Source of the DNA: Iphione sp. A-MEVVRFRX5
Taxonomy: Eukaryota
Assembly (NCBI GenBank): GCA_976226885.1
Contig: OZ320319.1
Span: 22,630,001-22,694,000, forward strand
Direction: 5' to 3'
DNA length: 64,000 nt
Shown one piece after another: positions 1,987 to 60,050 of this stretch (within the stretch, counting starts at the first letter, position 1; each line of letters begins with the position of its first letter). The notes beneath the pieces are model-generated. The model saw only the letters and a list, made by a program, of their open reading frames with translations, had not been told where the DNA came from and did no database searches. The translations under genes and the position numbers were made by a program.

Positions 1987-4900
1987 TGACGGGCATCAGC
2001 ACCGCCAAACACAGACCAATGGAGTGCCAATTACCATAATCCAATTCAGCACTTCCGCTGTAATCACCTTGATGGTAAGCGACCTCTTGCGACAATCAAG
2101 GCCATCAAGAGAACAGGGCTGCCGGTAAGAACCGGAAGGGGGGGGGGCGGAGGGGGCGCGGTCGGTGACAGGAGGGAAGTCAGTGTTAAAGTATGCTACG
2201 ACACAATGATGTATATCCTGGTGATCTGTAGGACCAGATATATGAGGAAGGACACTCATTGCAATGCGTTAGTGCCGTCATTACAATGACACCTGTTTTC
2301 TCCATGTAAAAAGTTATGTTAATGTGTGACAACTAGGCGAATGTAATGAATTTTTATAGGATGAAAGACTTTATAGGTGTCAATAAACAGACTTACATGT
2401 ACATTCACTTTTATATGGTTTGTATTTATGGAGAAAGATTTTCACCAACCACAAAATTGTGATACTTATTTGATGTTGTAATGTGAGCCTGAAATATCTG
2501 GTTCACTCCATATGCTGAATGCAGCTGGGTGTAAATCTCTTATAGTTTGTGTGAGAGAACGTCTGTTGATTCACAAAAAATGATATAGCCTATAGACATG
2601 GTTTTTCTTAGAAAGTTGCCTAAGCCCATTGACAGAAATAGCCTGTCCATCACTTCTGATTGGTCACTCTGGTAATAGGTAACCGAGCAGGTAATAGAGC
2701 ACCTGGCAGAGCAGTCACGTGACCAGCTCTGGTACATGAAACTGTATCCTTACAAACTTGTTCACACTGAAAATGACAGAGTAGAGACACGTCTCCGCTC
2801 CAGTGTAAAGTCATGATGGTGATCATGAAATAAATTGCTCATAATATAGCATAGAGCACTGGTAAAAATTACTAGTTTTAATCTTATATCATTATAGGTC
2901 GTTACAATGAAGATCTATTAACGTAGTGATGCGCGAGAGCATGACATAATCTAGTGGAAAGATATTATTTGTAAATTTCAGACATGTTATTCCAATAATG
3001 ACTGTTGTCCATATCCATTTTCTTAGTTTAAATCGTGATATATATATATGGAAGGTCATGCATACATTTTTGACAGCTTTCCTCCCAGAGAATACCAGGA
3101 ATCTCACATTAAACACATGTTAGGTGACTACGGCCTTAGAGGTGGTCTCACATCTTGTCTGTTTCGGTAATCCTTCATGGTTAATTAACCTAGCACTTGA
3201 AGGCCTTGACGTTGTGCATCCTTCACTTGACTTTAATTGTTGGTACTACTAAAACTCTTGCAAATTTCCTACGTGCAGAAGACTATTTAGCAAAGGTCTC
3301 TGGCTAGAATACATTTTATTGGGCCTAACAGTCAGAGGCCATTAAAGTTGAATAAAATATCCAGCCTCCCAGCGATTAAGTTAATTAAATAACACTTTTA
3401 TCTCTGTTGGAGATAAATAGACATTTATGTCATTTCTGATTTAGTAGAGAGAGGGCATGGCTTTGGTTCTTCATCAGTACGTTTACCTGTGAATACTCTA
3501 TCATTTTCAGCGGCTCAGCTTCCGCATAGTCTGCGACTTGAGGACATGTGATTTTTTTTAGAGTCAATAATGAATTGGCTTCTTTAACCTTTTCATGCAA
3601 CAGAAAAACTTTTCAGTGGGATTCACAATTTTGTCATAACAACCATAAACATTGATAGGAATGAAGTCTGTTTTCTCCTCATTCTCAATGATGCTCGCAA
3701 ATAAGGACGGAGACGTTTTGTTTTAAAAAACGTGTACTTCACTACAAAATCGCACTGTTGAATGGAAACTCCAAAAAAGAAATAACTTTGTAAATTGTTT
3801 AGATTTAAGGTCATCAGCCGAAAGAAACCTGCAACAGAATGAAACAGAATGGCCGTCGTCTACTATGTCAACAGCCACACGTTTTTGCTTGACACAAGTG
3901 GCTACGTACGTGAAAGAGAACGATTTTACATCTTTTATGACCTTTTAATTCAAAGTGTTATGACAGACAAGGACGAATTGGGTTAGCCATTTACTATCAT
4001 CGTTTTTGCGACCCCATTGAATTTGGTTGCACATCTAATTGACTTGCCAGACAACACATTAGTTAGTGTAAGAGGCGATTGTTTTTGTTTGAGGAGATCA
4101 AAAATTGATATCGCTATAGAAACTGTTACGGTTGACCTGATTTTGTGAGTTATGTTCCCATTTTTAACGTATCAAATCTTAAGGAGTTAATTGACAATTT
4201 TTGTCTAACAGCCTCCATGAATACTGGAATAAACGGTTTTTTTGTGAGTTGGTGGATATCTATATTGCTGTGTAGAGGATGGACTCTTCCAGTCTTGGTG
4301 AAGAGGGAGATTTGTTTGTAATGCGAAGTTGAAATTAAAGGGAGGATAACCCCTATTTTAAGGTAGACTTCCGTGTTTTCAGTCGTCAGCATCGGGAATA
4401 TTGTCCGGAGCACCTTATATGATAAAAGTCATTGCTTTATATACTCTGTTTGCTCTCTCCAAATTTTCCAATATTTGAATGAATTCTTTAGGGGAAGCGT
4501 CGAAAGCAAATTAGGAGATTATAGGCTGGAGAATTTCCTTAAAGGCACGTTGGCTTTTGGTATACATGTACTTCCCTTACAGATTAATCTTACAAACATA
4601 GTGAGTGAGAACGGGAGATTCAAGCATGGACAAACGAAGCTCTCTAGCATTGAGGTTAATGAAAAGTTTCAATATTTCTGTTAATATTACAGATAGAATT
4701 ATTCCTTTTCGGCAGCACAAAGGAGATATAATTACAATAACTCATAATAACCTTTTCATTTTTCCATCAAAAAGATTCAGAAGGAGACAAAGATGGGTCT
4801 TTCAGCATTGAAAATGCCGAGGGAGGCCGCAGGATGTCTATTCCAGAAGCTCATGTCAAGACATTTGGCAGTGGGTAGAGTTATCTCCTCAAAAGCGATC

Positions 4901-5933
4901 GGTGAATTGTGAATAACATAGAGCAATGCATTACATCAAGAAAGGTACTAAAATACAAAGCACTAATCATGAACATGAAGATTTCCTTCCAGCTAAATAT
5001 ATGTTGTACTTCCGCAATCTATTCATGTTTAATAACTCACTAGTTAGCCACCTTATCGGCGAGGAATCAGGCAGTTCCAAGCTGACGTCTATGTGGTTAG
5101 CCAGAAACTGTAAACCTTCTACAAAATACACTTTGGCCAGGTTGTCCAATACACCTATTATTGTGGTGCTTGGACATTATCTGATCTCACTTGTCTTTGA
5201 CTGCTGATGCTCTTCAGTATTTCTTACCTACAGAATCTTGCTGACTTACAAAATATTATCTGTAACAAGATATGTAACAAGAATTGTACTAGGACGTCAG
5301 GGTGCCAACATTTAAAGAGAAATAATGATGAACAGTGTAAAAGCCTCCAGTGATGCCTATTCATTACTCCTAACAACAACCCTGGCCATCAGAAATTCAC
5401 ACCATCACATTACCCGACTCTTTTGCAGGCAGAGTGGAGATTTCTGAATAAACATACGTGGGATAATACCTGTAAAAGAAGGAGGGAAGAAGCTAGTTAA
5501 TGAAGCAATGAATTTGTTTAAGACTGAGTGCATCAAATGAATGAGTTAAAAAAAGGCGCGAGACACTTTGGGTCACAAGGTAAGTTGTCTCCTAGGCTAT
5601 ACATCATTAAGAGACGCATTTTTTGCGTACCAAAACGTTAAAGGATTCCTTGCAAAATTTCTCCTTTTCAGTAAGTCCACAAAAAAATACCTTTTTCATG
5701 TAATACCTCCTTAAGAAATTAACCCTGATTTATCAACACTTCCCTACATTTAGAGTAAAGATTCTCAATCCTGATAACTCGCAAACTAAAAACCCTCGCA
5801 GTGGAGACATTCAACTACAAGGCAATGCGGTCTATGCCACCCGATGTCCTCTTAAAGAGCCTCAACTGTATATTTTCTGGGCCGTCTCCACTGAACGATC
5901 TTATTCGAGCAGCTCTCATAAGAAAAGTGACAG

Positions 5934-6003
5934 TAGATGTTTCAAACGACTCGAGCAATGAGCGATAGATGTTTCAAGAGATTCAAGCGGTGAGTGATAG
6001 ATG
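5934..6003. repeat. Short imperfect 32-bp tandem duplication (~2.2 copies)
   Basis: tagatgtttcaa recurs at 5934 and 5966, and tagatg at 5998. Confidence 0.7.
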
Positions 6004-9000
6004 CTGAAATGTCATGAGAACCAGACATTCGTACAATCGATAGTCGCAAAAGGTCATCATCAATTAATGGGATGAAAAGAAGTCCCCAAATAATCTCATT
6101 TCTTAGGGAAAATGTATCCAGACAGGCTTCACAAAAAAATTAGAAGTTAGAAGCAATTAGATCGGGATTAGGACGTAATTTTACCAGAAGGAGATAAGAG
6201 GAGGTCGGCGGGGCATACAGTACAGGCCTTGAGGGGATATTTCGGTTCTTAAAGGACTTCGCCAAGCATTAGTTTCCATTCTACTGCAGCCAGTCTGTAT
6301 CAATGCTCCGTCGTATTCTACTAGACCAGCAATCCATCTCTACCAGCCAGAAACCTGAGTGAAGGAAATAGCGAATGATCCCCGCTTGCCCCAAAGAGGT
6401 GATTGATTTCATATGCTGCATTGACTGCTGTCCCTAAGGCGTTGGCAGAGCACCATTTCATACTAGGACCTGAGACGAACTGTTGTAGCACTCACTCACC
6501 AGAGTTATCGCTCATAAGGTTGGTGAACAATACGAAGACTGATGCGCCGCCTCTCCCGCATGAGTTCTCGATATGAGGAGGCACTGCTAATAAAAAGCAT
6601 GTTGGATCACATTTCTTTAAGTGTCCGGGACTTTGTTGATATATAGTATTTTGAATTATATTCCATTAAATGTCTTTGCAAAGTTGGTTGGATAGTACAA
6701 TGTATTTTACTTTTGTACCTGAGATCAATTGTTTGGCCACTGAGCTTATCACTCTTGAGGTCTGAAAACAATAAGAGTTTTGTTCCCCAGTGAGCTCTTG
6801 ATATATGAAGACTTTGGTAGTATAAAATATAGATCCCTGTGTGTGACTTAAATGCATAAACAAGAGCCTTCCAAACCCCATTTAGTTCTTATTCATATCG
6901 ACTGTACCAGCATTACCTTGTTCTTTTTATCGCTCACAGCTTTGGTAAATAATAAAATAATAAGGCCACACTATGCGTTATCCATCCATCAAGACAAGTT
7001 AGCAAGACTTGTGTGCATATATTCTATATACAATTTGTGCACATTCGATATTTTCAATATATCTGAAGGGCATGTTACACTTGTTGTCTATACCAATTGG
7101 AAATTCAGTTTGTCAGGAATAAATAGGCTATTGCCTGCGTTGATATTCACGAATTTTACCAATCTACACAATCTAACTGATGTGTTCCGTAAATTATGCT
7201 GTTGCTACGTTGTAAGCACCGGCAGAAGTACACTTCAGCTTTACCCACATAAGTCTCACCGTAAGAAAACACACCTAGTGGCGTTTTATCAATCATACTG
7301 TAAGCGTGAGCTGCCGGTGGTTTCATGCTCAGACTAATTAATTCCAAAGTATATTTCGTTTAAGTTTTTTTCCCATCTGTTTTAAACAGCAGCTCCTCTC
7401 CAGAACTCGGTCTATCTATATGCCTTAAAGGTACACTCCGGAATGTTTTGTTCTTGTTTTCATTTTCACTGACAAAATATCCCTTCTGTAGCGGATGCAT
7501 ACAACGGTGTTTTAAATGCATAAATATAATGTGTGTATTTAAAATGACTGGATGTATAAACCTTAGTGGCCAGTTGAAGGGATGTTCTTTTTCTATGAAA
7601 TTCACTGCCTTGTGAATAAGTCTGAGCTTATTCATATAATGTTATCTTGTAGTAAAAAACAATTCTTCATTGATAAGGTCTTGGTATAGCACTAAATTAG
7701 CTGTTTACCCGGATGAATGTTTCATGCGGATAAAGCCTGAACAAAAAATATGTTACCGGTGACCTTGGTGACCTTGATTTTGGTAGCAACGAAAGTTTAT
7801 ATTTTTTTCTTGTTGTGCATATCTTTGGAACGAATATTGATACAGACATGTAATGCCCGATTGAGTTCCTTAGATCAGTAGCTTCTAGAGGGTATAAGTT
7901 TTTATTTTAAATCCAAGTACTCAAACTGATATCACCATACACTGTTGTTGATATCTGTAGTAAATCACATTAAAAACTAACATTATAAAACTGAAAAAAG
8001 GGACATTAACTGCAAACTGATGCACCCATAATTAACAGTGTATACCTGTATATGTACATGTATAGAGTATGAACGTTCTACCACGAGAAACGTCGCATGC
8101 CTATAAAGCGATTCTTTGTTTTGATAAGAAGCAGCCTACATGGTCCCGCTCCTGAGCAATAAAATAGAGCCGGAAATTTTTAAACAAAATATTTCATAGT
8201 AACTAAGCTTCAAATTTGTCACTTGGCTGGTAATTTTCCAAATCTTCTATTACGCAGTTTGAAGGTACAGATATCAATGGCGGGGTTTTAAATTTGGGTG
8301 TTTTCGTGAGGCAGTTAAATTGTGCATTTCTTGCAAAACATGCACGTGAATTATTTCTGAAAACAATCTCCCGAAATTCGTGATATACGTATTATTCCTG
8401 CGCAGGAAAAGATCGCTTTACATAATGGTTTTAACATGGACGGATTTCATGGACAATCATTCACCCATGATTCTGCCTATACTTCGTTTACAATTAATGC
8501 AGTTTTCCAAACATAAAAGGTAGAGGGTAATGCCGAAACCATGCCCTTTCTGTCCTGCATTATTGAGTTACGCTCCCTCACAAGAATATTCGATGAGTAT
8601 TTCATACATTGTCAATGTGCCAGCTCTAGGAACGAGAGAAGTCGCAAAACGCAGCCAGTGTTGTTTTTGAAGTAGGCGGCTGGGGGCGCTGCAGTATAAT
8701 GAGAAACGGCTTTAAACCACGTGGAATCAATCGTGCCTGTATTACCTCACGTACATGTAAACACTGGAGGCATATGACACCCAGCCAGCCCTAGCCTTTC
8801 TATCAAAGAGAAATATTTGGGTTTCCTATGAGGTCGATGGGCCTATGACACCCACAGGTTTTTCTAATAGGTTTGATGGAGAACACGTCAGGGGAAGGTG
8901 AATCAATTGTAATTGTAATTAATCTTTACCTCTACTGTGTTTCCAGCATTGCCGTGTGCGCCTTTCTATTCAGAAAGAATCTGAGGATTTTTTTCCTGGT

Positions 9001-21500: not shown

Positions 21501-22258
21501 AGGAAGCAGCAACTGGACCAGATTTAGTAACAGTTTCGGTACCACATTACACCAATAGATGTACCATAAACCACACTGCAGCACATTGTTGCGAGAACGA
21601 CTGATCCAAGATGCCGAGATGATCTCATATTCATCCCAGCGATCACATCGGTCTTCTTCATTCTAGTACCGCCATCCATGAAAATGAAATGGCCAACTAT
21701 TTAAGTTTACATTGGTGCTTCGAGATGATGTTGTGGACGACACATTACAGCATGAAATATTGATCCCATGCCCAATACTATCAGTTGTTTATCCGGATGG
21801 TAATCCATACTCAGCCATCTGTCACCACCCTCTATGTGAAGAAAGTATCTTTATTGTAATATTTGTAGATAGTAACATTTGCACATGACCTAAAAACTAC
21901 ATGACAGCAAAAGATATTGATCCCAGGCCCCAAATCAACCCTTTGCCTATGTAAGAAAAGATCCAATGCTAATCATCGAATTAATCCAGTGACAGGACTG
22001 GTATGAAGTAACATTGGCCGGTCTAGTTAAGTTAATCTGGGTAACATCTTACAACAGAAACGGACTTTTTACCTGTGGTTACCGCTATTTAACTATCCAT
22101 ATTTATGACATTGCCAACACGAAAACTTCCAACATCTACCTTGTTATATAACAGTCACCTATACAATAGAATCTCTATTTGCTACCAGTGTAATTTCCAA
22201 CCATTCTGAAATAATATTGAACTTCTGACTTTTGGAATGTGTATCCAACACCCAAAAT

Positions 22259-23083
22259 TGTAAAGGACGAGGCCTGTAGTAGGGAGTTTGTAGTAGACTT
22301 CAGTATAGGATTTAAGGTAGGATTAAGAGCAGCCTCTGGCAGATAATAGGTAGGGAAACTTTTAACAAGCAATGACATGTGGCTAGCTAGAGCTCTGCTG
22401 TGAATCAATATAGAATCAATATCATGTATGAGTCTCATTAACCAAGGATATCATTCAGTGGGGTTCTCATTAAATAGAATTAAGCAGGATAGACAGGGGG
22501 CATGGAGAGATCACCACTGGTTGGAGCTGATATATCGTATCAGGAAATGATGAAACAAGGGCTGAGAAGGGTTTTACTTGGAGGTGAAGCATGGGTCATG
22601 AGCATTTAGCAGTATGGTATGACGTGATAGTAGAACAACAGACCATTCTGGTTCAATAAGGATATGCTGGCTCTAGTTAATAACTTGTATAATCCAGAAC
22701 TGATTGACGTCAGCAAGGTTTGGTTAAGATCACGTTGTTGGAAAGTGTCTGTATGTAGCTGTATATGCAAATATGATGATTTGATGAAATAAAAGTAAGA
22801 GCAGACTGACACTGACAGCATTCACAGAGACAGAGACTGGCTGAGCAGACCCCCTGATACGACAAGACATGGAACGACCAGGACTGAGGCTCATATTGCT
22901 ATGACATAGGTGTTGAGTGAAATTATTGGTGGGACTTCCCACTAGTATGTGATTAAGGAGAAGACAGGTAGGTCCTTCTACTTCATCTGTAGGTGTGGAT
23001 TAGCAACCCACAGGTAGCCTCTGGTGATGGAGATGCGTCCTGCCCCTGTGAGGAAACCTGGAGGAGGAACTGGTGTCCTTACA
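22259..23083 (+). repeat. 5' LTR (825 bp)
   Basis: Starts TGTAAAGGAC and ends GTCCTTACA (near-perfect terminal inverted repeat); AATAAA at 22788-22793; matches 30913-31737 except at 7 positions counted by eye. Confidence 0.97.
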
Positions 23084-23087
23084 GTTT

Positions 23088-23105
23088 TGGCAACGAGGAT
23101 GGGAT
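23088..23105 (+). other. Primer binding site, tRNA-Ser(GCU)-like
   Basis: TGGCAACGAGGATGGGAT lies 4 nt after the LTR and matches 17/18 to the complement of the metazoan tRNA-Ser(GCU) 3' end as I recall it (TGGCGACGAGGATGGGAT). Confidence 0.8.
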
Positions 23106-23239
23106 GTCATGGAAGTAAGGAGAGGAGAGGAAACTCCCCAGCCATGTGGTGCAAGTAAGTGGAATCACGCCATTTCGCAAGTAAGTGTTGTGAAGGAAAG
23201 AGTGAAGCAGTGAGCAGTATAGACAGATAGACAGCAGTC

Positions 23240-24222
23240 ATGGCACAGGCCCAACCAGCAGCAGCCGAACAGGGCGGCATACAGCAATGCAGGCTAACCT
23301 CAGAGAGTATACAAAACGAATGAGCCCTTGTGATGGAAAGGCTAGGGACGAGGTGAGGAAGTTCATTGAGGATTTGGAAGCAATCAGACAGTGGTTAGCA
23401 GCCCCTGATGCCATGTTACTCCCTGTACTGGGATATCTGACTAAAGGAACACTAAGATCTAGCATCCAGACATTTCTAGCAGGGAACCAGCTGGGGCAAC
23501 AGGCTACATGGCCCCAAGTAAAGGCCCATATAATAGCCACCTTTTTAGAAGAGGATGAAATGGAATTCAGACGCAATGAGCTAGAGAAGATGAGACAGAG
23601 GCCATATGAAACTTTAAGAGAGTATGGACAAGGATTTTTAGAGGCCATGAACAGGGCATACACCCCAGTTCAATTGCAGGACCCTTTAACAAGAGCACGG
23701 GTTATAAGGTTTTACATCCAAGGTATCAGCGATAGAAACATAAGAGAGAAAGTCCATCTCGTACGGCCTGCCACAATACCAGTTGCCATGGCACGTGCGA
23801 ACGATGTAGCCAGGTCGGTGACCCTGGCTAAAGAAGAGAATAGGGGCCCATGGCCAGGAGAGCAAGAGAAGGGGAGGAAGGAAGAACCCATGGAGATTAA
23901 CCTGGTTAGTGCAGGAGGGCAGTTAGGGGACAAGAAGTCGACTGAGGAAGTCATTGAAGAACTGAAAAGGCAGGTACGAGGGCTGCAGAAGCAGGTGACG
24001 AAACTAAGTAAGAAGGAGCCGGGGTCTGCACCACTACCATCACCAGTGCCCCACCAACCCCGTGTCCCCACTGCACAAGCCAGGCCAGACAGAAGACGCT
24101 GGGATGAGAATGGGACCCCCTATTGTCTGAGATGCGGGAGGCTAGGACATATTAGTCGCGAATGTGGAGGCAGAGCACCAAACCAAGTGAATGAGGTCAG
24201 TGAAGACAGTCAGGGAAACTAG
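23240..24222 (+). CDS. gag: Gag. Open frame from ATG 23287 (311 aa); probable original start at ATG 23240 cut off by a 1-nt deletion
   Basis: C-terminal CCHC knuckle CLRCGRLGHISREC, an EPMEIN motif, a retrotransposon capsid-like helical region, and position directly after the PBS. Confidence 0.9.
24213..24219 (+). promoter_or_regulatory. -1 programmed ribosomal frameshift slippery heptamer G GGA AAC
   Basis: X XXY YYZ heptamer in the gag frame immediately before the gag TAG. The -1 frame (GGG AAA CTA GGT GCC GTG) runs open into the pol ORF. Confidence 0.85.
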
Positions 24223-27200
24223 GTGCCGTGTTGGCCGAGCGGCCTGTCATCCATTTGTCCATTCATGGAGTCAATACTGACGCTCTGGTTGACACGGGGG
24301 CCGCCTGTTCCTTGGTAAGTGAAGACCATTTTCGTTTCATCTGTGGCCGAGTTCACCGGCAGCCAATACTTTCAGCTACACCTGCATTGTGTAGTGTATC
24401 GGGACATCACCTTCATGTGTTGGGAAAGGTGGTGCTGCCTGTAGGGGGTGGAAGGACATTTGAAGCAGTAGTTGTAAAAGGATTGCCCCATGATGTGATA
24501 GTAGGGGATGACTGTCTCCGGGATGGAGGAGCAGTCATTAACTACAATAGGCGGACTGTTACTCTGGGAGGTAAGGACTATCCCTTCCAGACGGCAAGAG
24601 GGATACCGGTTGCATGTGTTGGAGTGGGTACAAGGTGGGCTCACATATACCCTGAGGCGTTTGCTAACGAGACAGAGCCTCTGGGCTGCGTGAGTACTAC
24701 CTGTACCATCAACACAGGGAGACAAGGACCCCTCCACCAACGGGCATACCGAATGCCCTTGTCTAAGAGGAAGCTCGTTGAGGAAGAGCTCAACAAGATG
24801 CTTGCTGATGGGGTGATTAGGCCGTCTAGGTCACCGTGGGCATCTCCGATCACCCTAGTGCCGAAGAAAGATGGGGGAACAAGGTTTTGTGTAGACTATC
24901 GGCGCTTAAACGCAATTACCGTGAAAGACAGTCACCCTCTTCCACTTGTTCAAGACATTTTTGATCAGTTTGGTGGCAGCACGAAATTCACAACCTTAGA
25001 TCTTAAAAGTGGATATTGGCAAGTACCGATGAATGAGGACTCAATAGAGAAAACGGCATTTGTTACTCATAAGGGACTGTATGAATTTCTGGTTATACCA
25101 TTTGGACTGTGTAACGCCCCAGCGTTGTTTCAACGGTTGATGCAGGAAGTATTGCATGATTTGATTGGACAGTGTGTGATGGTACATCTAGATGATATAG
25201 TAATATACTCTAAGACTGATGAAGAACATGTGAGGAACACAAGAACGGTGTTGGAACGACTTGTTGAGGCCGGCGTGAGGTTGAAACCATCAAAATGTAC
25301 ATTTGATGCAGAGGAAGTGAAATTGTTGGGATACGTCGTGTCCAGGGATGGTATCCAGTCAGACCCTGATAAGGTGGCGGCTATCCGCAACTTGGATACG
25401 CCTGCCACAGTAAAGGAGGTGCGAAGTTTTTTGGGAATGGCTGGTTATTACAGACAGTGTGTAGAGAACTTTGCCGCCATTGCCGCACCTTTGACAGAGC
25501 TGACAAAGAAGAATGAGAGATCGGAGTGGACTGAGAGGCACCAACGAGCGTTTGAGCAGCTGAAGGCTCACAGGTAATGACTCACCCCAACCCCAGTAAA
25601 CCTTATAAACTCTATACCGATGCATGCGACTATGCAATAGGGGGCATATTGGTACAAGAGGTGGATGAGGTGGAGCGAGTTGTGCAGTATGTGTCGAAGA
25701 AACTCGAAGAGCGACAGAAGAAGTGGGCTGTGATTGAGAAGGAGGCCTGGGCTGTAATATACTGTTTGAAGAAGCTGCGCCCCTATCTGTATAGAGCACA
25801 GTTCACCATCTTAACTGATCATAAACCTCTCAAGTCTTTGTTTTTACAAGAGGTCGCAAATACTCGGATTCAGCGGTGGGCAGTGTTGCTCGAAGAGTAT
25901 GGAGCTCCCATTGAGTATAGGCAGGGATCCCGCAATATCAGAGCCGACATGCTCAGTCGGATAAGATCACCCGCTGAGGCCTGCCTTATTGATACCCCAG
26001 CTCGGTGGACTGTTCCGCAAGAGGAGGCAGAGGACGAGACACCTATTCCTTGGGATGCAGATGGGCTAGATATCGAGCAGCTAAGACGATGGACGAATAT
26101 GAGAAGGGCCGGGATGGGAAGGATGGTCAGTACATCCTACGGGGAGGTCTCCTCTATGATACCTCTGAAGAAAATGGGGCCACCCCCTACCCTCGGCTGG
26201 TCCTCCCTCCCTCTCATCGATGGAGAGTGATCCGTCGGGCACATACTGAAGTTGGGCACCAGGGGGTGAGTAGGACTCTATGGCGACTGAAGGAGGCTTA
26301 CAAGTGGCCAGGTATGAGACGGGACGTGAGGGCCACCTTAGCCCGATGCTCTCGCTGCTCTATGCATCGGGATACCCAACAGCACGCACGCCCTGGGGAA
26401 ATGCCCCTGGCAACATATCCAATGCAAATTCTGGGGATGGACTTGACCGGGCCTTTTGAGATGTCATCTGAGGGTAACCGGTATGTACTGACTGTTATTG
26501 ATCACTGCATGGGATGGGTGGAAGCCAAGCCTATTCCATCAAAAGAGGAGCGGAACGTCTTAAACTTCCTAGAGAGGGAGTTTATTCCACGGTATGGTAC
26601 ACCAGAAGTGATTATTACTGACCAAGGAGGTGAATTTAATGGTGAGGTTCTGAACAGTTACCTGAAGCAAATGGACATTGATCATAGGCGAACCACCCCT
26701 TACCATCCCCAAAGCAATGGACGAGTGGAGAGGTTCCATCGCACACTGAAGAAACTCATCAGGAAGTTAGTCAATGGTTGCAGTAGCTGGTGGGAGGACG
26801 AACTAGGGAACGCCCTCCTGGCCCACCGGATATCTACGTCAGTTGTAACAGGATACACACCGTTCTTCCTGATGTACGGGCGGCAACCAAGGGCACCGAT
26901 GACATCAATGTTGCGGCGCCTGGAGGGTCACGACCCCACTGTGGTGAGTGAGAGGTTGGACTCTTTGGTAAGAGCTCTGCAGGAGGCGGCCCGGCGCACT
27001 CAAGAGTCATGAGAGCTCAACCGGAAACGACTCCAGGCCCGTGCATCGAAACAGGAGGTGCAACCAGGGGACACAGTGGTCCTGAAGAATAACAGGGCAG
27101 CGCAATTTGATCCAAAATGGCACACCGAGTATGAAGTCATCCGTGTTTCAGGACCAGTAGTGCGTTGCCGACATCAGCGGACGGGTGCTATAAAAACGGT

Positions 27201-27624
27201 CCATCGGTCACAGATTCGGATTGTGCCAAGGGATCTGGTGTGGGACGTTCCCCCACCATTGCCACCCGTGAGACCAAGGCAAAGAGCTTATCTGCCCCAC
27301 GCAGTTAAGTCGAGGTACGAGGACGACCCTGATTGGACTCCACCCTTGCCTTTGCATTTGCCACGCCCATCCCACCCACCACGCATGAGCACCAAGCGGA
27401 AGGGGGAGCCAATCGAGCAAGAAGAGGCTCTCAAGCGACAGTGCACTGCGAGGGCCGAGCTAACTGAGGAGCTGATCGACACCGACCCTATTCCGCTGAG
27501 GAAGCGCGTGGGGGAGGACATTGGCAGCGGACAGGGAGCGACTTCCAGCAAAGGACCATGCATTTTGTGTGCTGGACTCTGCTCTTGCTTTGTGGTGCAG
27601 TCACAGCGACAGCATCACTACTAG
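24213..27624 (+). pseudogene. pol: pol (protease-RT-RNase H-integrase), disrupted
   Basis: LVDTGA (PR); VDYRRLN, LDLKSGYWQ, PFGLCNAP, HLDD (RT); LYTDACD, TDHKPL, ADMLSR (RH); H-x-H/C-x2-C, DLTGP, TDQG, YHPQSNGRVERF (IN). Frameshifts near 25570 and 26088; in-frame TGA at 27010-27012. Confidence 0.95.
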
Positions 27625-29537
27625 AGGAAGATGGCATCTTGGTCACTGAGATGGGGGCTGGACGTGAAGTGGTTGGAACATGGACTGTCCTAGTCACGAT
27701 CCGAGAGCCCCTGCCAACAGAAGTCAGGAAACTGACGGAGACAGTGCGAGCATACCTTGAACGTGCGCAGGGTATGGTGTCCAACCGGACATACAAGATG
27801 TGGACTGGGAGGATCAACCAGGTTGGGGACGCCTTGCCTGACGAGTCACCCAGTGATAGTAATCCTGACCGACGGAAGCGCGGTATCATCGACGGAGTTG
27901 GGCGGTTAAGTAATTGGTTATTTGGAACCGCCACTGAAGAAGAAATTCAGAATTTGCAGAACATTGTAGAACAGTTAAGGGGGGCTGAGGTTGAACTTGT
28001 GCATGCGCACAATGCATTGGTGACACTGGTTAATAAGACGATATGGACTCTCAACAGACAAGGACGGCAGTTGCAGATTGACGAAGACCACATACGAACA
28101 TTAGAAATAGCAGCACAAGGGTTAGACCGAGCTGTAGCATTAATGGGTAAGCAGTTGACAGAATTAGAGGTTGGACAGGAAGGAGATAGGGTGTTAAATG
28201 AACTGGAAACGATCTACAGAAGTTGGAAGAACAAACACGAACTATTCATTGACCAACGGCGCACACTTGATCGTGGATGGTTGACGGTTGATCTTCTCTC
28301 GGCTGAACAATTAACTGAGGTTTTAATGACACAAGAGGGGGAGCTAACATCACATTCCCTCCCACTCCATTGGTACTATCAAAATGTCATGGTTGAATTA
28401 TTGTGGTCGAAAAAGAATGAGTTTGTATGTAAGGCAGATATTCCAACGGTGAATGATGAAGAGTATATTCTGTATTCCATTTAGTCTGTACCAGTTTACA
28501 CGGGTGTTGATGATGTTTGGCAGAGGACAATTGGTGTTCCTGACAAGGTAGGTTGGAACACGCGGAGGGGAGGTATTATTGAAACATCAGAGTGTTATGG
28601 AGGTAGCCCTATAGTCTGCCCACCCACAGTCCATCACCGTCAGGAGCAATGTGTTACAGGGATCATCACGGGCCAGCAACAGCAACTTGAAACATGTAAG
28701 GTTGAATTGTTTTCTGATCCTCGCATCAGTGTTGCATACAAGTTAAGCCAAAATGTATATTTGTTTTCAGGAAGAAATGATTCTGATGTTTCTATACAAT
28801 GTCTTGGTCACCAGGAGAGACGGGAAGTAATAGGAAGGGCAAGAGTTTTCCAAATTAAACCAAGCTGTATAGCGCAGACTGAGTCTTGGCATATAGCTGG
28901 AGAACATATCCGTCAAGTGGCATTAGATAATGCCCAGGAGACCGAAGTATCACAAGTAATTGATTTCGGCTTTAATATTCGAAAATTGGACGATTTTAAA
29001 AAGGTAAAGGAGCTAGTTCGGCATCAGCCTATAACACTGGAGGCGGGTGATCAGAGGGCATTATGGGTTGAACCACCTGTTTTGGGAAAGAAAACTTTGG
29101 TTATGGGTTCATCCATTGGATCTGGCATATTTGTGGTTATTGTAGTAATCTTTGTTATTGTCTGCTGTTGCTGCCTGCGTCGAAAAGGGAGGAACTTCCT
29201 CACGATGGATTGCTGGACACAGGCTGAGGCAAAAGGTAAGGGAACACCAGGCCTGCGACTTGCTAACTTGGTCAAGTTGCAGGAATTGTCCGAAGCTAAG
29301 AGCACTCAGCCATTGCCAGCTGCTCAAAAGGTTGTCAGGGATATCACTCCGCGTCAGGAGTCTGTCTCGCCGGGGAGTGCTCGGTCCTCGCGGGGCTCCC
29401 CGCTGATAGACAGGAAAGTGGAAGCTGGCATGGCACCTGTGCAATCATCTTGTGGGGAATCTGTAGCTAGCATAACTAGTGGGTGCCTAGTAACTGATGA
29501 GACGCTTGGGGAAGCGCCTCGCAAGTACCCTTGGTAA
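27558..29537 (+). pseudogene. env: env, F-type class I fusion glycoprotein (baculovirus F/errantivirus-like), with one in-frame stop
   Basis: Signal peptide MHFVCWTLLLLCGAVTATA; furin site RRKR (27870-27881) followed by fusion peptide GIIDGVGRLSNWLFGTAT; heptad-repeat region; TM segment GIFVVIVVIFVIVCCCCL. TAG at 28482-28484, after which the same frame continues into the 28707-29537 ORF. Confidence 0.9.
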
Positions 29538-29589
29538 AGCAGACCTGTGTTTCCCTGATAGGGTATGGCAACTTACCTAATGGCATAGT

Positions 29590-29750
29590 GTCTGTATCTC
29601 CCCATGAAGAATAGGATACCGCCTATTCATTGACAAGGTAGACCTCGAAGTGTTCTTTGCATTACTTGGTACCTGTATTCCCCGCGAAGAATAGGATAGC
29701 GCCTATTCACTGGTCAACATTCCTGGAGTGTCTTGAGCATTGCTTGGTGG
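29590..29750 (+). repeat. 80-bp imperfect tandem duplication, each unit carrying a GAATAGG-N6-CCTATTC hairpin
   Basis: Hairpins at 29609-29628 and 29689-29708, exactly 80 bp apart. Confidence 0.85.
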
Positions 29751-30009
29751 ACCCTTTCGGATTGCGTAGTGTGGCGGTTGTGAGGTTATTCATTTACAAG
29801 TAGTGGTGTTCTCCTATTGTTGTTGGTACCTCACAGCCGTCCGCACCCTTAGTATTGTTAGGGTTGTTTACGGTTGTATTATTATCATAGCATTAGTGGT
29901 TATACAACTTCTATTCTTGCAGTTATATCATAGCCTATAGTAAGTCTATATAATCATAGTGGTAAGTCTGTATAATCATAGTAAGTTCTTAAGTAATAAT
30001 ATTATAACC

Positions 30010-30867
30010 ATGGGAGTAATTGACCTAGAAGGGGTTAGTCTTACGCGATTAGCACATCATAGTAAGTATTTCCAGGCCCTGTTGGAGTATGATGGTATTG
30101 ATGAAGAACATGTTTGTGAACTACCCCCAATTTTTGACAAAGAGGAGTATATGAAAATCTTAAAACTAATGGGTTCTGACGTTAGCGACCTCGAGGTGAC
30201 TGCTGGAGTGTGGGCCTGCATGTGGCATGGCCAGGCTAAAACATTCCTAGAATTTATCAATTTCTTTGCGTGTGACAACTTGTTCATGCATCTGTTGGAA
30301 TATGGGATAATTCACCAGCCGTGGCAGGCACATGACTTCCTGGGGGAGGTCTTTGAGCTGTACGGCACCGGTGATCCTCGTGGTTCCCTTGCTCTGAAGT
30401 TTCTATCAGAATATGCAAAGTATTGCCCCGAAATTTTGATCCAGAATATTAAAAATAAACAGGCCAGACGGACATTTTCTAAGGGAAAGATCCGTTCTGT
30501 TCTACGAAGTTTTGAACGGAGCGAACTCTACAGAAGCAGACAGCGAACCACAGCATGCTGTACCTGTAGGAAGCCTATTGTGTACGTGCAGAACTCCGGA
30601 TGGCACATTTGGCAGGCAAGCCGGATGCCATGCTGCGGTGCGGTAGTGCATGGGTACTGCTTTTGGGAACTAGTTGATGCCTGGGACTATTGTCCGAAAT
30701 GCGAAACCGTGTTCGAGGAGGACGGAACCCTGACTCCTCGGGTGGGCCTGAGTGTCTACCATGTCCTGTCCCAGGTATTGGACAGGAGGGAACGAGCGAG
30801 GGCCGAACGCCGTGAGGCCGAGGGCATACCACCGGAAGTTGTTATCCCACCGCCGCCTCGGGGGTGA
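30010..30867 (+). CDS. ORF4, accessory protein (285 aa): BTB/POZ-like N-terminus plus RING-type zinc finger
   Basis: Open frame with ACCATGG Kozak context. RLAHHSKYFQALLEY...ELPPIFDKEEYMKILKLM...FLEFINFFACDNL resembles the BTB pattern. C-x2-C-x21-C-C-x4-H-x2-C-x10-C-P-x-C at 30556-30702. Domain calls are by motif recognition only. Confidence 0.7.
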   Translation: MGVIDLEGVSLTRLAHHSKYFQALLEYDGIDEEHVCELPPIFDKEEYMKILKLMGSDVSDLEVTAGVWACMWHGQAKTFLEFINFFACDNLFMHLLEYGIIHQPWQAHDFLGEVFELYGTGDPRGSLALKFLSEYAKYCPEILIQNIKNKQARRTFSKGKIRSVLRSFERSELYRSRQRTTACCTCRKPIVYVQNSGWHIWQASRMPCCGAVVHGYCFWELVDAWDYCPKCETVFEEDGTLTPRVGLSVYHVLSQVLDRRERARAERREAEGIPPEVVIPPPPRG

Positions 30868-30898
30868 AGTAGATTTTGGAATCCCGATTCCAAATCTT

Positions 30899-30910
30899 AA
30901 GTGGGGGGGG
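30899..30910 (+). other. Polypurine tract
   Basis: AAGTGGGGGGGG, 2 nt before the 3' LTR. Confidence 0.85.
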
Positions 30911-30912
30911 TA

Positions 30913-31737
30913 TGTAAAGGACGAGGCCTGTAGTAGGGAGTTTGTGGTAGACTTCAGTATAGGATTTAAGGTAGGATTAAGAGCAGCCTCTGGCAGATAA
31001 TAGGTAGGGAAACTTTTAACAAGCAATGACATGTGGCTAGCTAGAGCTCTGCTGTGAATCAATATAGAATCAATATCATGTATGAGTCTCATTAACCAAG
31101 GATATCATTCAGTGGGGTTCTCATTAAATAGAATTAAGCAGGATAGACAGGGGGCATGGAGAGATCACCACTGGTTGGAGCTGATATATCGTATCAGGAA
31201 ATGATGAAACAAGGGCTGAGAAGGGTTTTACTTGGAGGTGAAGCATGGGTCATGAGCATTTAGCAGTATGGTATGATGTGGTAGTAGAACAACAGACCAT
31301 TCTGGTTCAATAAGGATATGCTGGCTCTAGTTAATAACTTGTATAATCCAGAACTGATTGATGTCAGCAAGGTTTGGTTAAGATCACGTTGTTGGAAAGT
31401 GCCTGTATGTAGCTGTATATGCAAATATGATGATTTGATGAAATAAAAGTAAGAGCAGACTGACACTGACAGCATTCACAGAGACAGAGACTGGCTGAGC
31501 AGACCCCCTGATACGACAAGACATGGAAAGACCAGGACTGAGGCTCATATTGCTATGACATAGGTGTTGAGTGAAATTATTGGTGGGACTTCCCACTAGT
31601 ATGTGATTAAGGAGAAGACAGGTAGGTCCTTCTACTTCATCTGTAGGTGTGGATTAGCAACCCACAGGTAGCCTCTGGTGATGGAGATGCATCCTGCCCC
31701 TGTGAGGAAACCTGGAGGAGGAACTGGTGTCCTTACA
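30913..31737 (+). repeat. 3' LTR (825 bp)
   Basis: Direct repeat of 22259-23083; AATAAA at 31442-31447; followed by the AAAT TSD. Confidence 0.97.
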
Positions 31738-34700
31738 AAATAACACTGCCAGTTGTTTGAATTCTGTCAGCACACTGTATACACCTAGTCTTTCTGTTTG
31801 CACAATATGCTGTAAATGTATACTGATTTTACCTTTCTTTAATCAGTGTGAAATCCAATCGGGCTCCCAGGTGATGTATTTGTCTGGCTAAACTGTGTGT
31901 GCTATGGCCAAAAACGTTCACAAACCATGGACTGTTACTACGTAACAGTCCTGGCTCAGAACAGCTGAAACAAACACGTTCCCCTTTGTGCTTCTGCATC
32001 TAACAAAAAAAAACACTTTTACTACTGGAGAAACGAGGACATGCAATAAACACTGTATTTCATACTCCCTAGTTTAAAAAAAATAAACAGGCAGATCATC
32101 CTGGCAATTAGGTCTCAGCATGTCCGCATGTTACGCAACCATTTAAATTCCCCTGTACTTTACAATCCACCCCTAAGAAAAAACAATTCCTCTTTGATGG
32201 TTTCGGTAAATCTTTGCCCATAATTAGCGCCGTGACATGCAGGCTTGCCGTTAGGGGCTCACGACTCCCTGCTTGCCCCGAGCGGTCATTCAGTCGTGAT
32301 TAAATACCATTACTTTGAAGGCAAGAGACAGGACAATCATTCTAGATGAATTACATGAGAAATTTCAATCAAACACGTTGGAAATGGTCCTGTTTTAACC
32401 GTTCCAGGCTGAGACGATGATAATTCTGCACATTTCACTGGTCCATATAATTAGTCTTCATTTAAGTGAAGGTGGTAATCTCAGTCATTATTTGAAATAA
32501 GGCTATATAATGATACTCACAAATAATATATATATATAAACAATTTTCATGTTGTTATATATCTACAGGCCAGCACTTGTAGACAATGTCTGCATCTCAA
32601 ATTGTTTTGTTTCGTGAAAGAAATAGGATATGATCTCAATTACTTGAACAATTTTATTCTAATCGGACGGGCAGTAATTTGATCCTGAGTTTACTTTGCT
32701 GGGTGTGATTTAATACTTTCCATTACAACTGGACGCTAGAAATAATTGTCTTAAAACTGAGTACCTGACAATATCTGAGTTTCAGAAAATACATATCCAG
32801 AGGGTTTAGAAACATGTCTGGTACAATATAGCGAAGCGATGACGACGAAATATTGTATTAGACCACTCTGCTTTTAATAATTTTCTAATTGTCTCAACTT
32901 TCTGTCTTTTTGTTCACGGGGAGATCTCGATGTATTCACAGAATACTATGAGAAGCGAATAAACCGATTGAAATCGACAAATAATCAGCAAAGGACTGAA
33001 CAATATAGTAATGTAAACAGACTGGAAAATATACGGAGCGTAAAACCATATTGAGGCAAAACTCCTGTGGCATCATCTGTCGAAGCCGTAAAGTTATTAT
33101 ATCGAATGTATCATTATGACCGTTTAAAGATTAAGATCTGATCTATAGTCTCCATTCGAGAACAGCTGCCCCTCTAAGTAGTACTTACAATCATCCAACA
33201 TACAAGATGCCTACCGCTATCTGCGACAGATTAAGGCTCACTATCGTGTACAGCAGCAGCTTTGAGGGCACTTCTACGTGCAATATCGTTATTTTTAGGC
33301 TTCAAACAAAGGGCAGGATTAAAATGGTATTAATCTGAAAACACACGACAGGCACTTTCAGGAAATCGGCGTTCCTCTGTCACTATCTGCAGCTCCTTCA
33401 AGCAAAATGTGTACTTTTACTATTTAGTTACGCAAAGGTTTCAAAGTCACACTGTAACGGGTCTTTTTACCACTCGTAGATGTGTAAATTGTATTAATGA
33501 ATGTTCCACATGTAACAATAATTTCATTAGATAGGAAAATTATCATAATTGATAATAGTCTACCAAATGAATATGATACCTTTGAATGACACCCTATCCT
33601 CAGGCTTCTTTCTAATAATCCTTAGTTTAATAATGTCGAGTAAAATATCCCTCTGCATACTGCGCCTAGCCGAGTAAGTATCCTGGCCAGTGGGGAAGAA
33701 AAAGGAAAGATTTATACCAAGATTTTGCAAACATCCGCTCTCTTTCATACATGTGGGCAGCTGAAATAGTTCCACGTCTTCCCACTGGGAGGCGCGCATG
33801 GTATTGCCCATGATTCACCTGCAGTCTCCGGAGAAATCGTGCTTGAAGACGGAAGAGAGGACGTTACCGTTGGCATGAATTTAAACAACTACTTGTTTGC
33901 CTAACACGTACCACAGGTGTGCAGCCAGGCAGTGATTCATCTTCCCGAACAAAGCCAACGCCCGACGTCGTCTTGTTAAACGTCTGTATCGAGTGTCAAG
34001 GGTCCATAGTTCAGGTTTGAGTATTATATGCAGCACGAGGATCGGACATCCTCCATTATGTGAGTCTTCACAGATCTTTTTTCTTTCATCATTTATATGA
34101 TGCATTGTACAGACATGACGTTATAAATGAGTACTTTCAACTTTGGTTTTATGGCTGAAAAAAAACCTTGGGACGTGACGGCCAGGGAGGTGAGGCAAGC
34201 ATGTAGGTATTGACCACAGATTTCCATGGGATAAGGGCCAACTTCCACACTTACGTTGTTCGGATTGCACCGCATTAGCGTGGCATCAGGGTTGCATCAC
34301 ACTAATCCAGTAAGTGGCTTTTCCTGCATACTCCCGCAATGATGGTTCCCTCTGCTTGAATTTGGCTAGCGTTGTGTGAGTGAATTTCCCACCCTTTCCC
34401 ATTTGTCAGAGGACAAAGTATGTATTGTAATTTTGGAACATGTGCAGTTTTCCCTTAAATAAAATAGACATGATCTAACGTATGTTCACACAGATTTTTC
34501 TGTGCTACAACGGTCATCTGCTCTTTGCTACTTAAGCGTTTGTATGTGTTTGCATGAAAATCATCAGCAGTGTCTGAAAAGGAACGATGCAAATGCAGTA
34601 CACAAATGTAACACAGGTATAAAGACGTCCTTATTGATCATCACCTGTTGGTTTAAAAAAGTAAGGCAAACACAGCAAAAATACAATGCATATAAAACAA

Positions 34701-40337: not shown

Positions 40338-42910
40338 CAGCAGCTAGAAAACCTCCAACTGTGACACTGATCATTCACTTGTTGGGGCAATAGTGTGCCT
40401 TTAATCAAAGTGGATCCACATCTCCAAGCAGAAAGGGTGGCCACACATCAACACTGCGGTGATCTCTACAGCAGATCTCCTATTAATTGACAAGGCCCTC
40501 AAGGATTGCCCAACTAGCAATACAGAGGAAAGGTGGGGGTACATCTGTGAAGCTATCTACAACTCTGCCATAAACACCTTTTGCAAGCAGGAGAGGAGAA
40601 ACCCAGACTAGTTTGAGGCTAGGATCATAGAACTCAAGCCAGCTATTGCAGCACTATTAGACTATATGAGGGAACCTTCATAGAAAACACTAATTATATG
40701 CAGGATGGCCAGAAACAATATCCAGGGCATTGCTATGAAATGTGCCAATGACCACTGGTTTAGCATATGCCAGAGCATCCAACTAGAGTTGAACGTCCCA
40801 ATTACGGTCACCCTGTGTTCTTGTCTGCATTTCAGCCGTGGCCACTTTGTAGAACTGTTAGTAGGATATTGAATGGGGGTCAAACGTAGCACTGAATTTG
40901 ACCAGTAAGAGTCCTAAAAGTACTACATTTGCCCAGTAAAAGTCCTAAATGTACTGAATTTGACCAGTAAAAGTCCTAAAAGTACTAAATTTGACCAGTG
41001 AAAGTCCTAAAACTACTGAATCTTATAAGTAAAAGTCCAAAAAGTACAGAATTTGACTAGTAAAAGTCCCAAATGTTTTATTCATGTCCATCTTTGAAAA
41101 TGACTTCTGAGGCCTCCCTGGAGCCCCAAATTCGCACGACAGCACCTCGTCCGCAGGGTTATTCATCTCTGCCTTTCAAAATGACTTTTGACGCCTCCCT
41201 GAAGCCCTCAATTTGCGCTTAAGCAGTGTCCGAAGGGGACACTCTGTAAAATTAGCTGTCCTTATTCTAGATATCTGGGTATAACGCTCAACAATATGAA
41301 AGCCCTCGGTTCTTCTTCAAATGGTCTGCATTTGGGATGCGTCTGGATCCCAGACGTGTCTGCAAGGGGACGTCCCACTGTATATACTGACTATAGGAAC
41401 ACACATGCCATATACGAGGGCATGAAGAATGTGCTCAGTCCAAGTGTCACCAAGATTGCACCACTAAAGTCTAAAACCATAACAAGCCATGGCAGGCAGA
41501 TGGACACATAGGCAGACCACTACCAGCAGCTGTACTCATGGGAAAATGTTATCACTGACTCAGCAGTCTAGTATATCAAACCCATGCCAACCATGGAAAA
41601 ACTTGATACTCCATCCTCACTGGGAAGTGATGGCATTCCAACCAAGGTCATTAAAGCTGGGAAAGAAACCTAATTCCTCAACTACCTCCATGAGCTCTTA
41701 CTGCAGTGTTGGGAGGGAGGAACAGTTCCACAAGCCATGCAAGATACCAACCTCACATTACTATACAAGAACAAAGGAGACCACAGTGATTGCAATAACT
41801 ACCATGGGATCTCTCTTCGCAGCATTGTCAGCAAGGTCTTTTCCTACATAGTCCTGGACAGACTTAAGTCACTTGCAGAGGGTATCTACCCAGAGGTGCA
41901 GTGTGGCTTCAGAGAAGGAAGATCAACAGTCAACAGGATAGGATGCCCCCCAAGCTCCTAAAATGATTATCTCTTTCCATGAAGAAATGAGAGGCACTGT
42001 CCAGTACAACGGATCATCTTTAGAACCCTTTCCAATCTGTAGTGGTGTGAAACAAGGATGTGTCCCCACTCCAATGTTCCTCAGCATCTTCTCCCTGCTG
42101 CTGCAGTACAGCTTTAACCAGTCTAAAGATGCATCTACATCCACACAAGAAGTGATGGGAGTCTTTTCAACCTTGCTCATCTCTGTGGAAAGACCAAGGT
42201 TCACCTTGGGTGTGCACACTGAGGATGAACTACAACAACTCATCAACCACCTGGCAGATGCAAGTAATGTGTTTGGCCTGACCATAAGCATCAAGCAGTC
42301 CAAAATTCTGGGTCAAGATGTCAGTGCTGACTCAATGCTTTTCATCTATGCTGTCTGAGGGCGAACTTGGGTATCACCTGGCAGGATCATATCCCAAACA
42401 AGGACGTGCAAGCAAAAACAAAAATACCAAGCATGTTTGCCCTTCTCTCACATAGATGTCTACACTGGTTGGGTCATGTCATATGCATGCAAGATGGCTG
42501 GATCCCCAAGGACACCCTGTATAGTGAGCTCACCCATGGCTTCCAGACCCACCAGCAGGCCAGCCCTGTGATTTAAGAATGTCTGCAAGCATGACCTGAA
42601 GGCTGGCAACATCCATCCAGATGACCTCAAAACTACAGCTGCTGATTGATTTTCTTGGAGACATGCTGTTAAGACCAGTCTTGAGCTGAGTGAGGGGAAG
42701 AGAGGAGACCATTGGAAAATAAAGGGAGAGTGCAAACAACAGCAAGTACAATCAAAGTTTACAAAGATACTTGCAGGCTTTGCCTGCAGTTACTGCAATA
42801 AGCTTTGCCGTTCAAGGATAGACCTGCACAGCAACTGCAGGTGCTGCCACACAGACTAACCAAGGCACAAACTGCCCCCATTGTCTCCCAAGACAGACAG
42901 ATGCCAACCA
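40338..42910 (+). mobile_element. 5'-truncated, degraded RTE-clade LINE
   Basis: End of the APE domain (CDTDHSLV), RT motifs (DGIP; LLQCW..GTVPQAMQD; LYKNKGDHSDCNNY.GISL; QCGFR.GRST; GVKQGC), a C-terminal C-x2-C zinc-like motif and an RTE-type 3' end (gacagacagatgccaac). Flanked by a 17/20-identical direct repeat at 40318-40337 and 42911-42930. Confidence 0.88.
40890..41075. repeat. 31-bp minisatellite, 6 copies, inside an insertion that interrupts the RTE
   Basis: Unit consensus tactgaatttgaccagtaaaagtcctaaaag. Confidence 0.92.
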
Positions 42911-59896: not shown

Positions 59897-60050
59897 CAAC
59901 TCAGATGTTTATTCCTCAAACTCACTATAACTCAGGTTTTTACTGCTCAAAGTCACTATAACTCAGGTTTTTACATCTTAAATTCACTATAACTCTGGGT
60001 TTTACTCCTTAAACTCACCATGACTGAGGTATTTACTGTTCAAACTCATC
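59897..60050. repeat. 31-bp minisatellite (~5 copies) in an intron
   Basis: Unit aaactcactataactcaggtttttactgctc. Confidence 0.9.

Follow-up and report, generated by a model that had tools for sequence, protein, structure and literature searches.

A fourth gene predicted to encode a BTB-RING protein follows env in a family of Ty3/Gypsy proviruses of the annelid Iphione sp.

A Ty3/Gypsy provirus of the annelid Iphione sp. carries a fourth gene, open reading frame 4 (ORF4), between env and the 3' long terminal repeat (LTR). The provirus spans positions 22259-31737 of a 64-kb stretch of DNA (the window; G000:C15:22630001-22694000 in the 1.18-Gb assembly that was searched for copies), and its ORF4 (30010..30867, on the + strand, like all features of the element given below) encodes 285 amino acids and is open, unlike the gag, pol, and env genes of this copy. 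We conclude that ORF4 is a selected gene of the element that descends vertically with the reverse transcriptase (RT). Its product is predicted to consist of a BTB/POZ core followed by a helical linker and a RING finger, and we favor, with a probability of roughly 0.6, the interpretation that it is a ubiquitin-ligase accessory protein acting on a host defense factor.

ORF4 as a selected gene of the element

The genome search for further copies that the initial annotation of this DNA had proposed returned at least 74 ORF4 matches, which fall into identity tiers of about 94, 76, 65, and 58-61%. We examined the window and 47 fetched loci, 48 in all with ORF4; because they were picked by their ORF4 match, the following counts are biased towards linkage. 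Family gag, pol, or env lies on the same strand at 41 of the 48 loci, and env at 39; of the others, three contain a short integrase remnant only and four are isolated fragments. A 4-bp target-site duplication was found at 18/20 loci where both LTR ends are readable, and this consistency, together with the number of ORF4 matches, implies that the four-ORF layout did not arise by chance. All four genes are open in 7 of the 31 loci scored, ORF4 is open in 24 of 30, and the two LTRs are identical at six family loci. The family was recently amplified, with many very young copies. The LTR of subfamily A gave at least 41 matches (40 of 140 candidates were scored), many of which are probably solo LTRs.

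ORF4 follows env in three subfamilies with open frames and in one decayed subfamily. In the RT tree, subfamilies A, B, C, and E form one clade (100/100) with the topology ((A,B),(C,E)), and an ORF4 tree built by a quick method recovers the same groups in the same arrangement. Ratios of nonsynonymous to synonymous substitution (dN/dS) between subfamilies, calculated by the Nei-Gojobori method, were 0.12-0.16 for ORF4, 0.05-0.20 for env, and 0.02-0.07 for gag/pol, where dS ranged from about 0.5 up to saturation and some saturated pairs yielded no ratio. The low dN/dS between subfamilies and the RT-like branching of ORF4 rule out a one-off capture, which the initial annotation had raised as the alternative; these results and the linkage to env noted above establish ORF4 as a family-wide gene.

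Four internally deleted copies were seen among the family loci (L040, L022, L028, and L081), three of them with LTRs that are 99.9% identical. The losses comprise ORF4 (L040), part of env, and the region from integrase to env, and L081 lacks env. These copies suggest defective genomes that were mobilized in trans.

ORF4 is also present on the host side. Three loci (L035-L037; L035 8001-8855; G000 C2:18302413, C22:32998373, and C22:48003176) contain an identical open ORF4 that is 61% identical to that of the window. They lie inside a duplicated segment of >57 kb with about 99.7% identity, in which gag, pol, env, and LTRs are absent. An integrase remnant beside this ORF4 is 67% identical to subfamily C and is interrupted by two gaps and stops; the host-side ORF4 itself is 76.5% identical to subfamily C without a gap (0.81, 0.89, and 0.60 by codon position). 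Its dN/dS is 0.12, its GC content at third codon positions is 0.30 versus 0.51, and it has been kept where the spacer hairpin described below has been lost. This pattern in the sequence suggests that the host-side ORF4 remained under selection once its provirus had decayed, which would amount to co-option. Assembly redundancy could account for part of the triplication. At one edge of the duplicated segment (L060 region; G000 C2 about 18321700-18326000), translations of broken frames resemble, as judged by eye, a Polinton/Maverick-type DNA polymerase B and zinc-finger proteins.

Predicted ORF4 protein, RNA signals, and possible functions

The ORF4 protein can be divided into a BTB/POZ-like core (residues ~1-105), BACK-like helices that extend to residue ~177, a RING, and a helical and proline-rich tail. 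AlphaFold2 modeling with 39 sequences gave a mean confidence score (pLDDT) of 93. For residues 1-105, VIA ranks 1-26 were all BTB/POZ, Skp1, or ElonginC folds, with the POZ domain of Nac1 as the best match (Z 7.0, root-mean-square deviation 3.0, 88 residues aligned); the same domain was a weak sequence-profile match (E 0.013-0.06). Alignments that reached residue ~177 were to BTB-BACK proteins, the best Foldseek rows were KBTBD4, SPOP, vaccinia A55, and poxvirus BTB proteins, and the Atlas features for ORF4 were RING and BTB. A BTB/POZ fold is therefore likely for the N-terminal half. The RING ligands are C183/C186/C208/C209/H214/C217/C228/C231, and the eight positions are kept in 38-39 of 39 family members. 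The RING profile matched that of HRD1 (E 2e-6), followed by Pirh2, AMFR, and RNF126. At positions that would contact the ubiquitin-conjugating enzyme (E2), Ile, Val, or Leu occupies residue 185 in 25/39 members and Pro occupies residue 229 in 17/39.

A full HMMER profile scan of 1.84 billion representative proteins found 39 relatives of ORF4, 18 of them at E<1e-10, mostly full length at 250-330 aa; a word-index protein search found none with the single ORF4 sequence and one with the profile. The 20 relatives that were looked up are all unnamed or 'hypothetical' and come from ENA, Logan, NCBI, or JGI assemblies. In two clusters, the relative is present as multiple, nearly identical copies (in one cluster with fragments as well) on contigs of 0.4-2.3 Mb, as would be expected for a mobile gene; another relative lies on an 18-kb contig. 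Scans of viral contigs and of metagenome contigs contained no ORF4 homologues. Likewise, no cellular parent of ORF4 was found among the best candidates in its own genome, which were inspected exon by exon with ORF4 and two distant relatives as queries; the own-genome matches of these two relatives were all at loci already matched by ORF4.

Conserved signals in the leader and spacer point to expression of ORF4 from a spliced RNA. A predicted splice donor, CAA/GTAAGT (23178..23186 in the window copy), is present in 23/23 loci that have a primer-binding site (PBS), within a leader that has otherwise diverged. The predicted acceptor of ORF4 is a pyrimidine-rich tract ending in YAG (29809..29836); YAG is found in 25 of 26 loci with a pyrimidine tract, 76-173 nt before the ORF4 ATG, and two old loci lack the tract. 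No sequencing run was listed as containing env-ORF4. Directly after the env stop, the spacer between env and ORF4 contains a hairpin, of which subfamily B has one copy and A and C mostly have two. A genome search for exact copies of its 24-nt core gave 43, in family loci of A, B, and C, versus none in the control, and the core is absent at eight other env loci that were checked. The window has two copies, the first with a slightly diverged GAATAGG/CCTATTC stem (29599..29629) and the second at 29679..29709. The spacer, including the hairpin, has no match in Rfam.

According to the interpretation that we favor, genomic RNA would be primed by tRNA-Ser, Gag-Pol would be made through a -1 frameshift at G-GGA-AAC, and splicing of the leader donor to the acceptor at 29836 would yield the RNA for ORF4 translation. 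The RING would bind an E2, the BTB/BACK part would recruit a cullin or the substrate, and the target would be a silencing or restriction factor that is tagged for removal.

Several observations weigh against this interpretation. Foldseek returned nothing at E<=0.001 for the ORF4 model, the structural match to BTB has Z < 8, and the alignment begins at residue ~36 of the targets, which implies that the usual N-terminal dimer segment is absent; Pfam BTB likewise matched none of the 39 members. The window ORF4 protein reaches no Pfam RING cut-off, the RING spacing (C-x2-C...C-C-x4-H-x2-C...C-x2-C) is non-canonical, and the residue after the last RING Cys is variable among the 39 members rather than Arg or Lys. 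There are upstream ATGs in the leader and, in five other copies of subfamily A, also after the acceptor. Moreover, ORF4 is dispensable in cis. From the env side, in a sample that leaves out a few small env fragments, three family env loci have no nearby ORF4 match: L040, a young copy with 99.9% identical LTRs from which ORF4 is deleted; L100, with no ORF4 within 2.7 kb of env; and L099, where the env locus is interrupted. Two sister env families, whose RT is 50-55% identical to that of the window and whose PBS is different, also lack ORF4; their env reaches the 3' LTR, and their internal region measures 6.3-6.5 kb versus 7.8 kb here. Finally, dN/dS of ORF4 in one pair within subfamily A is 0.79, a value that is expected if the changes arose after insertion.

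ORF4 could instead be a regulator of the Rev, Tat, or CERV kind, in which BTB oligomerizes and the zinc domain binds viral RNA (for example, the hairpin) or chromatin, such that the protein exports unspliced RNA or drives LTR transcription without any ligase activity. Export of unspliced RNA is a requirement for any element whose donor and acceptor are strong. The hairpin core does not vary between subfamilies that are nearly saturated at synonymous sites, and none of the eight other env loci checked has it. POZ domains of transcription regulators rank best among the BTB matches, and the available text on CERV of the Cer1 element provides a precedent (PMC10309623). However, that text describes a different architecture for CERV, the profile matches of ORF4 are to RINGs of E3 ligases, and for the helices that follow BTB, the alignments are to cullin adaptors of the BTB-BACK type (SPOP, vaccinia A55, and KLHL3). 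The host-side copy, moreover, retains ORF4 without the hairpin. On balance, we consider a purely regulatory role rather unlikely. The weak matches of the BTB and BACK-like helices to KBTBD4, SPOP, and A55, and a RING without a conserved basic residue after its last Cys, would also be consistent with a Cul3-type adaptor that uses its RING-like zinc domain as a substrate-binding module (compare poxvirus BTB-kelch proteins and Vif) and is not an E2-recruiting ligase. Such an adaptor is improbable in our judgment, given that the hydrophobic positions typical of E2 binding are partly kept (residue 185 in 25/39 members and Pro229 in 17/39).

The remaining explanation, that the element recently captured ORF4 from its host and carries it as neutral cargo, draws on the capture of ORFs downstream of env that is known for LTR elements (the accessible part of PMC6431247) and on the copies without ORF4. 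It conflicts with a dN/dS of 0.12-0.16 over near-saturated dS, with the RT-like branching of ORF4, and with the absence of a cellular parent among the best own-genome candidates. Thus, neutral cargo is largely refuted, and we give it hardly any credence.

Relation to known elements and implications

Env-bearing Gypsy elements of annelids are a known type. Chary and Hayashi (eLife 2026; PMC13524379) catalogued 1,512 env-bearing Ty3/Gypsy elements, many of them from annelids and with F-type ENV. Because this part was already published, it is not new, and the suggestion in the initial annotation of an undescribed lineage of invertebrate retroviruses is overstated, as the accessible part of that catalogue includes env-bearing Gypsy elements of annelids and other non-insects. 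The 'ancient errantiviruses' described there in Annelida share with the Iphione element a Ty3/Gypsy pol, the gag-pol-env order, an F-type env with a furin-like site and fusion peptide, LTRs, a tRNA PBS, multiple young copies, and an annelid host, and the combination of Ty3/Gypsy pol with an F- or gB-type env in gag-pol-env order that defines them operationally is found here. By contrast, three ORFs were required and annotated per element there versus four here; the accessible portions mention no fourth gene, and the main text, as far as available, contains none of the terms RING, BTB, accessory, ubiquitin, or zinc finger. In the available supplementary file 1, 0/19 Ser_GCU rows are annelid, and many rows carry no PBS call. 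From its coordinates, the gap between the env stop and the 3' LTR is an estimated 1.2-2.8 kb in 33 of 54 annelid elements with LTR calls, compared with 1.4 kb here; this estimate is a lead only, as the flank definition misfits some rows and LTR starts may be partial.

The virus taxonomy committee ICTV gives one, two, or three genes for the canonical internal region of Metaviridae (PMC7879559). The Iphione element has the LTRs, PBS, and polypurine tract (PPT), the order protease (PR)-RT-RNaseH (RH)-integrase (IN), a Ty3-like RT, and a gag with capsid and nucleocapsid that characterize this family. Its four genes under selection exceed the canon, which we regard as a variant feature and not as grounds for exclusion.

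Among vertebrate retroviruses, bel and nef lie 3' of env, and Vif, Vpu, and Vpr hijack cullin ligases. Counter-defense accessory genes are taken as a mark of the complex vertebrate retroviruses. An accessory gene beyond gag-pol-env, like bel1/bel2 of spumaviruses and the lentiviral accessory genes (in the available part of PMC2238898), is indeed present here, which upholds the initial comparison with the layout of a complex retrovirus. Beyond the layout, the element differs: RT is of the Ty3/Gypsy type and not of the retroviral lineage, env is F-type, and ORF4 showed no similarity to proteins of these viruses in any search made here, so that the resemblance is in layout only.

Other systems resemble parts of the element. 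Cer1 of C. elegans, also an LTR element of an invertebrate, uses a spliced RNA to produce an additional regulatory protein (splicing being predicted here). According to the available text, CERV shares exons with gag, has H/M/G domains and a C4-type loop, and exports genomic RNA (PMC10309623), whereas ORF4 occupies a frame of its own between env and the 3' LTR and has predicted BTB and RING folds. The planarian Gypsy element Burro and rotifer LTR elements are also invertebrate elements with extra domains or ORFs; those of Burro, some of them related to ubiquitination and apoptosis, are mostly within a giant polyprotein (PMC6431247, PMC5408684). The accessible text of both papers leaves BTB unmentioned, and the rotifer text also lacks RING, ORF4, and 'fourth'. 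Vaccinia A55, a poxvirus BTB-BACK-kelch protein, resembles the predicted BTB-BACK-like N-terminal half of ORF4, and the RING-H2 ligases HRD1 and Pirh2 resemble its RING-like C-terminal domain, but ORF4 has both parts in one 285-aa chain with an unusual C-C-x4-H-x2-C, and identities are about 10-24%.

No four-gene BTB-RING element was found in the literature searched, a search outside which lay the sequences of Repbase, Dfam, and GyDB and subscription journals; a Repbase or Dfam entry with an unannotated ORF4 may exist. Three things appear to be undescribed: the BTB-RING fourth gene that is under selection, the unnamed family to which its protein belongs, and the copy that may have been co-opted. 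Work on ORF4 gives a name to an unannotated protein family. If our interpretation is true, Gypsy elements reached the accessory-gene solution independently, and the target of ORF4 would point to an annelid anti-retroelement pathway; we know of no such pathway that has been characterized in annelids. More broadly, and tentatively, with the odds somewhat against it, a wide clade of env-bearing invertebrate Metaviridae may be 'complex metaviruses' with a counter-defense gene for a BTB-RING ubiquitin ligase of their own after env. The 39 relatives would then be such genes in other animals, the gene would lie unannotated in the 1.2-2.8 kb env-LTR gaps of published annelid elements, and it would have been domesticated at least once.

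Provirus structure, Env, and the surrounding DNA

The LTR-PBS-gag-pol-env-ORF4-PPT-LTR layout with a 4-bp target-site duplication that was annotated initially is borne out by the coordinates, although that annotation was silent on the broken gag, pol, and env of this copy. The duplication AAAT can be read directly on both flanks (22255..22258 and 31738..31741). The LTRs (22259..23083 and 30913..31737) are 825 nt each, begin with TG and end with CA, and differ at 7 positions (99.15% identity); an AATAAA at LTR position 530 is kept across four subfamilies. The PBS (23088..23104) is complementary to host tRNA-Ser(GCT), with one mismatch in the window copy. The PBS-complementary pattern has 11 genomic matches versus 0 in the control, and ARAGORN called tRNA-Ser(gct) at 2/3 of the loci checked. 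The PPT lies at 30899..30912.

Pfam cut-offs were exceeded by Retrotrans_gag, RVT_1, RT_RNaseH, Integrase_H2C2, and rve; zf-CCHC and Baculo_F matched more weakly. Gag (23240..24222) contains Retrotrans_gag and a CCHC knuckle; in the window copy, the frame of the family start codon (23240) closes after 27 codons. A G-GGA-AAC heptamer ahead of the gag stop (24213..24222), seen at the gag end in subfamilies A, C, and E (the subfamilies checked), is predicted to mediate a -1 frameshift into pol. Pol (24204..27624) has the order PR-RT-RNaseH-IN and is of Ty3/Gypsy type by Pfam and RT comparison: among solved structures, Ty3 RT is closest (E 1e-68), with foamy virus (1e-35), murine leukemia virus (1e-28), and also HIV RT far behind. 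In this copy, pol breaks near 25570 and near 26070 and has a stop at 27010.

The env gene (27558..29537) encodes an F-type (class I) protein and has a stop at 28482 in the window copy. Its product has a hydrophobic N-terminus, an RRKR furin-like site, a fusion-peptide-like GIIDGVG, a heptad region, and a transmembrane helix. In the unbroken natural Envs, the N-terminus is hydrophobic, the cleavage site is basic, and heptads, a fusion-peptide-like segment, a transmembrane helix, and conserved cysteines are present. Baculo_F was weakly matched by 7/7 aligned Envs, the Env profile matched PDB entry 9w4d, 'fusion protein' (E 1e-13), and a low-confidence Env model (pLDDT 49) matched the F proteins of respiratory syncytial virus and human metapneumovirus in Foldseek. 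Two unnamed ENA proteins, 40-44% identical, are the nearest outside relatives. The viral contig scan contained no such Env, and the metagenome contig scan gave five distant loci. At the one of these that was read (L076), no ORF4-like frame was found; an open 711-aa F-type env frame is followed there by a gag-like frame on the same strand (3993-8412), an arrangement of env before gag or of tandem elements. Within the Iphione genome, several further env-bearing families were seen at L041-L050, with Env 23-33% identical and some open frames of 499-843 aa, and no ORF4-like frame follows env in them.

Two candidate signals around env were rejected. A splice acceptor just 5' of the env ATG is not a family feature, as the AG of A and B is missing in 5/6 loci of C and E, and CTGATGAG at the end of env, which could be read as a hammerhead, lacks conservation in subfamily C. 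An internal promoter may be one option for expression of env, and the Tor elements of Oikopleura reportedly have one.

The initial inference of a non-insect host was confirmed, and mitochondrial gene order identifies an annelid. The protein genes of the 15.5-kb mitochondrial contig share one strand and follow the order nad6-cob-atp6-nad5-nad4L-nad4-(gap)-nad1-nad3-nad2-cox1-cox2-cox3, which we take to be the common annelid order; they were named by reading translations, and cox1 alone by Pfam. Degraded cox1 pieces (G000 C4:89642397-89642808) are probably a nuclear mitochondrial insertion. Pfam comparison of 70 flanking frames revealed no host gene. Elsewhere in the window are a short RVT_1 fragment (41674-41958, + strand; E 1e-4), probably from a decayed non-LTR element, and two 31-bp minisatellite arrays (40891-41073, 5.9 copies; 59898-60048, 4.9 copies).

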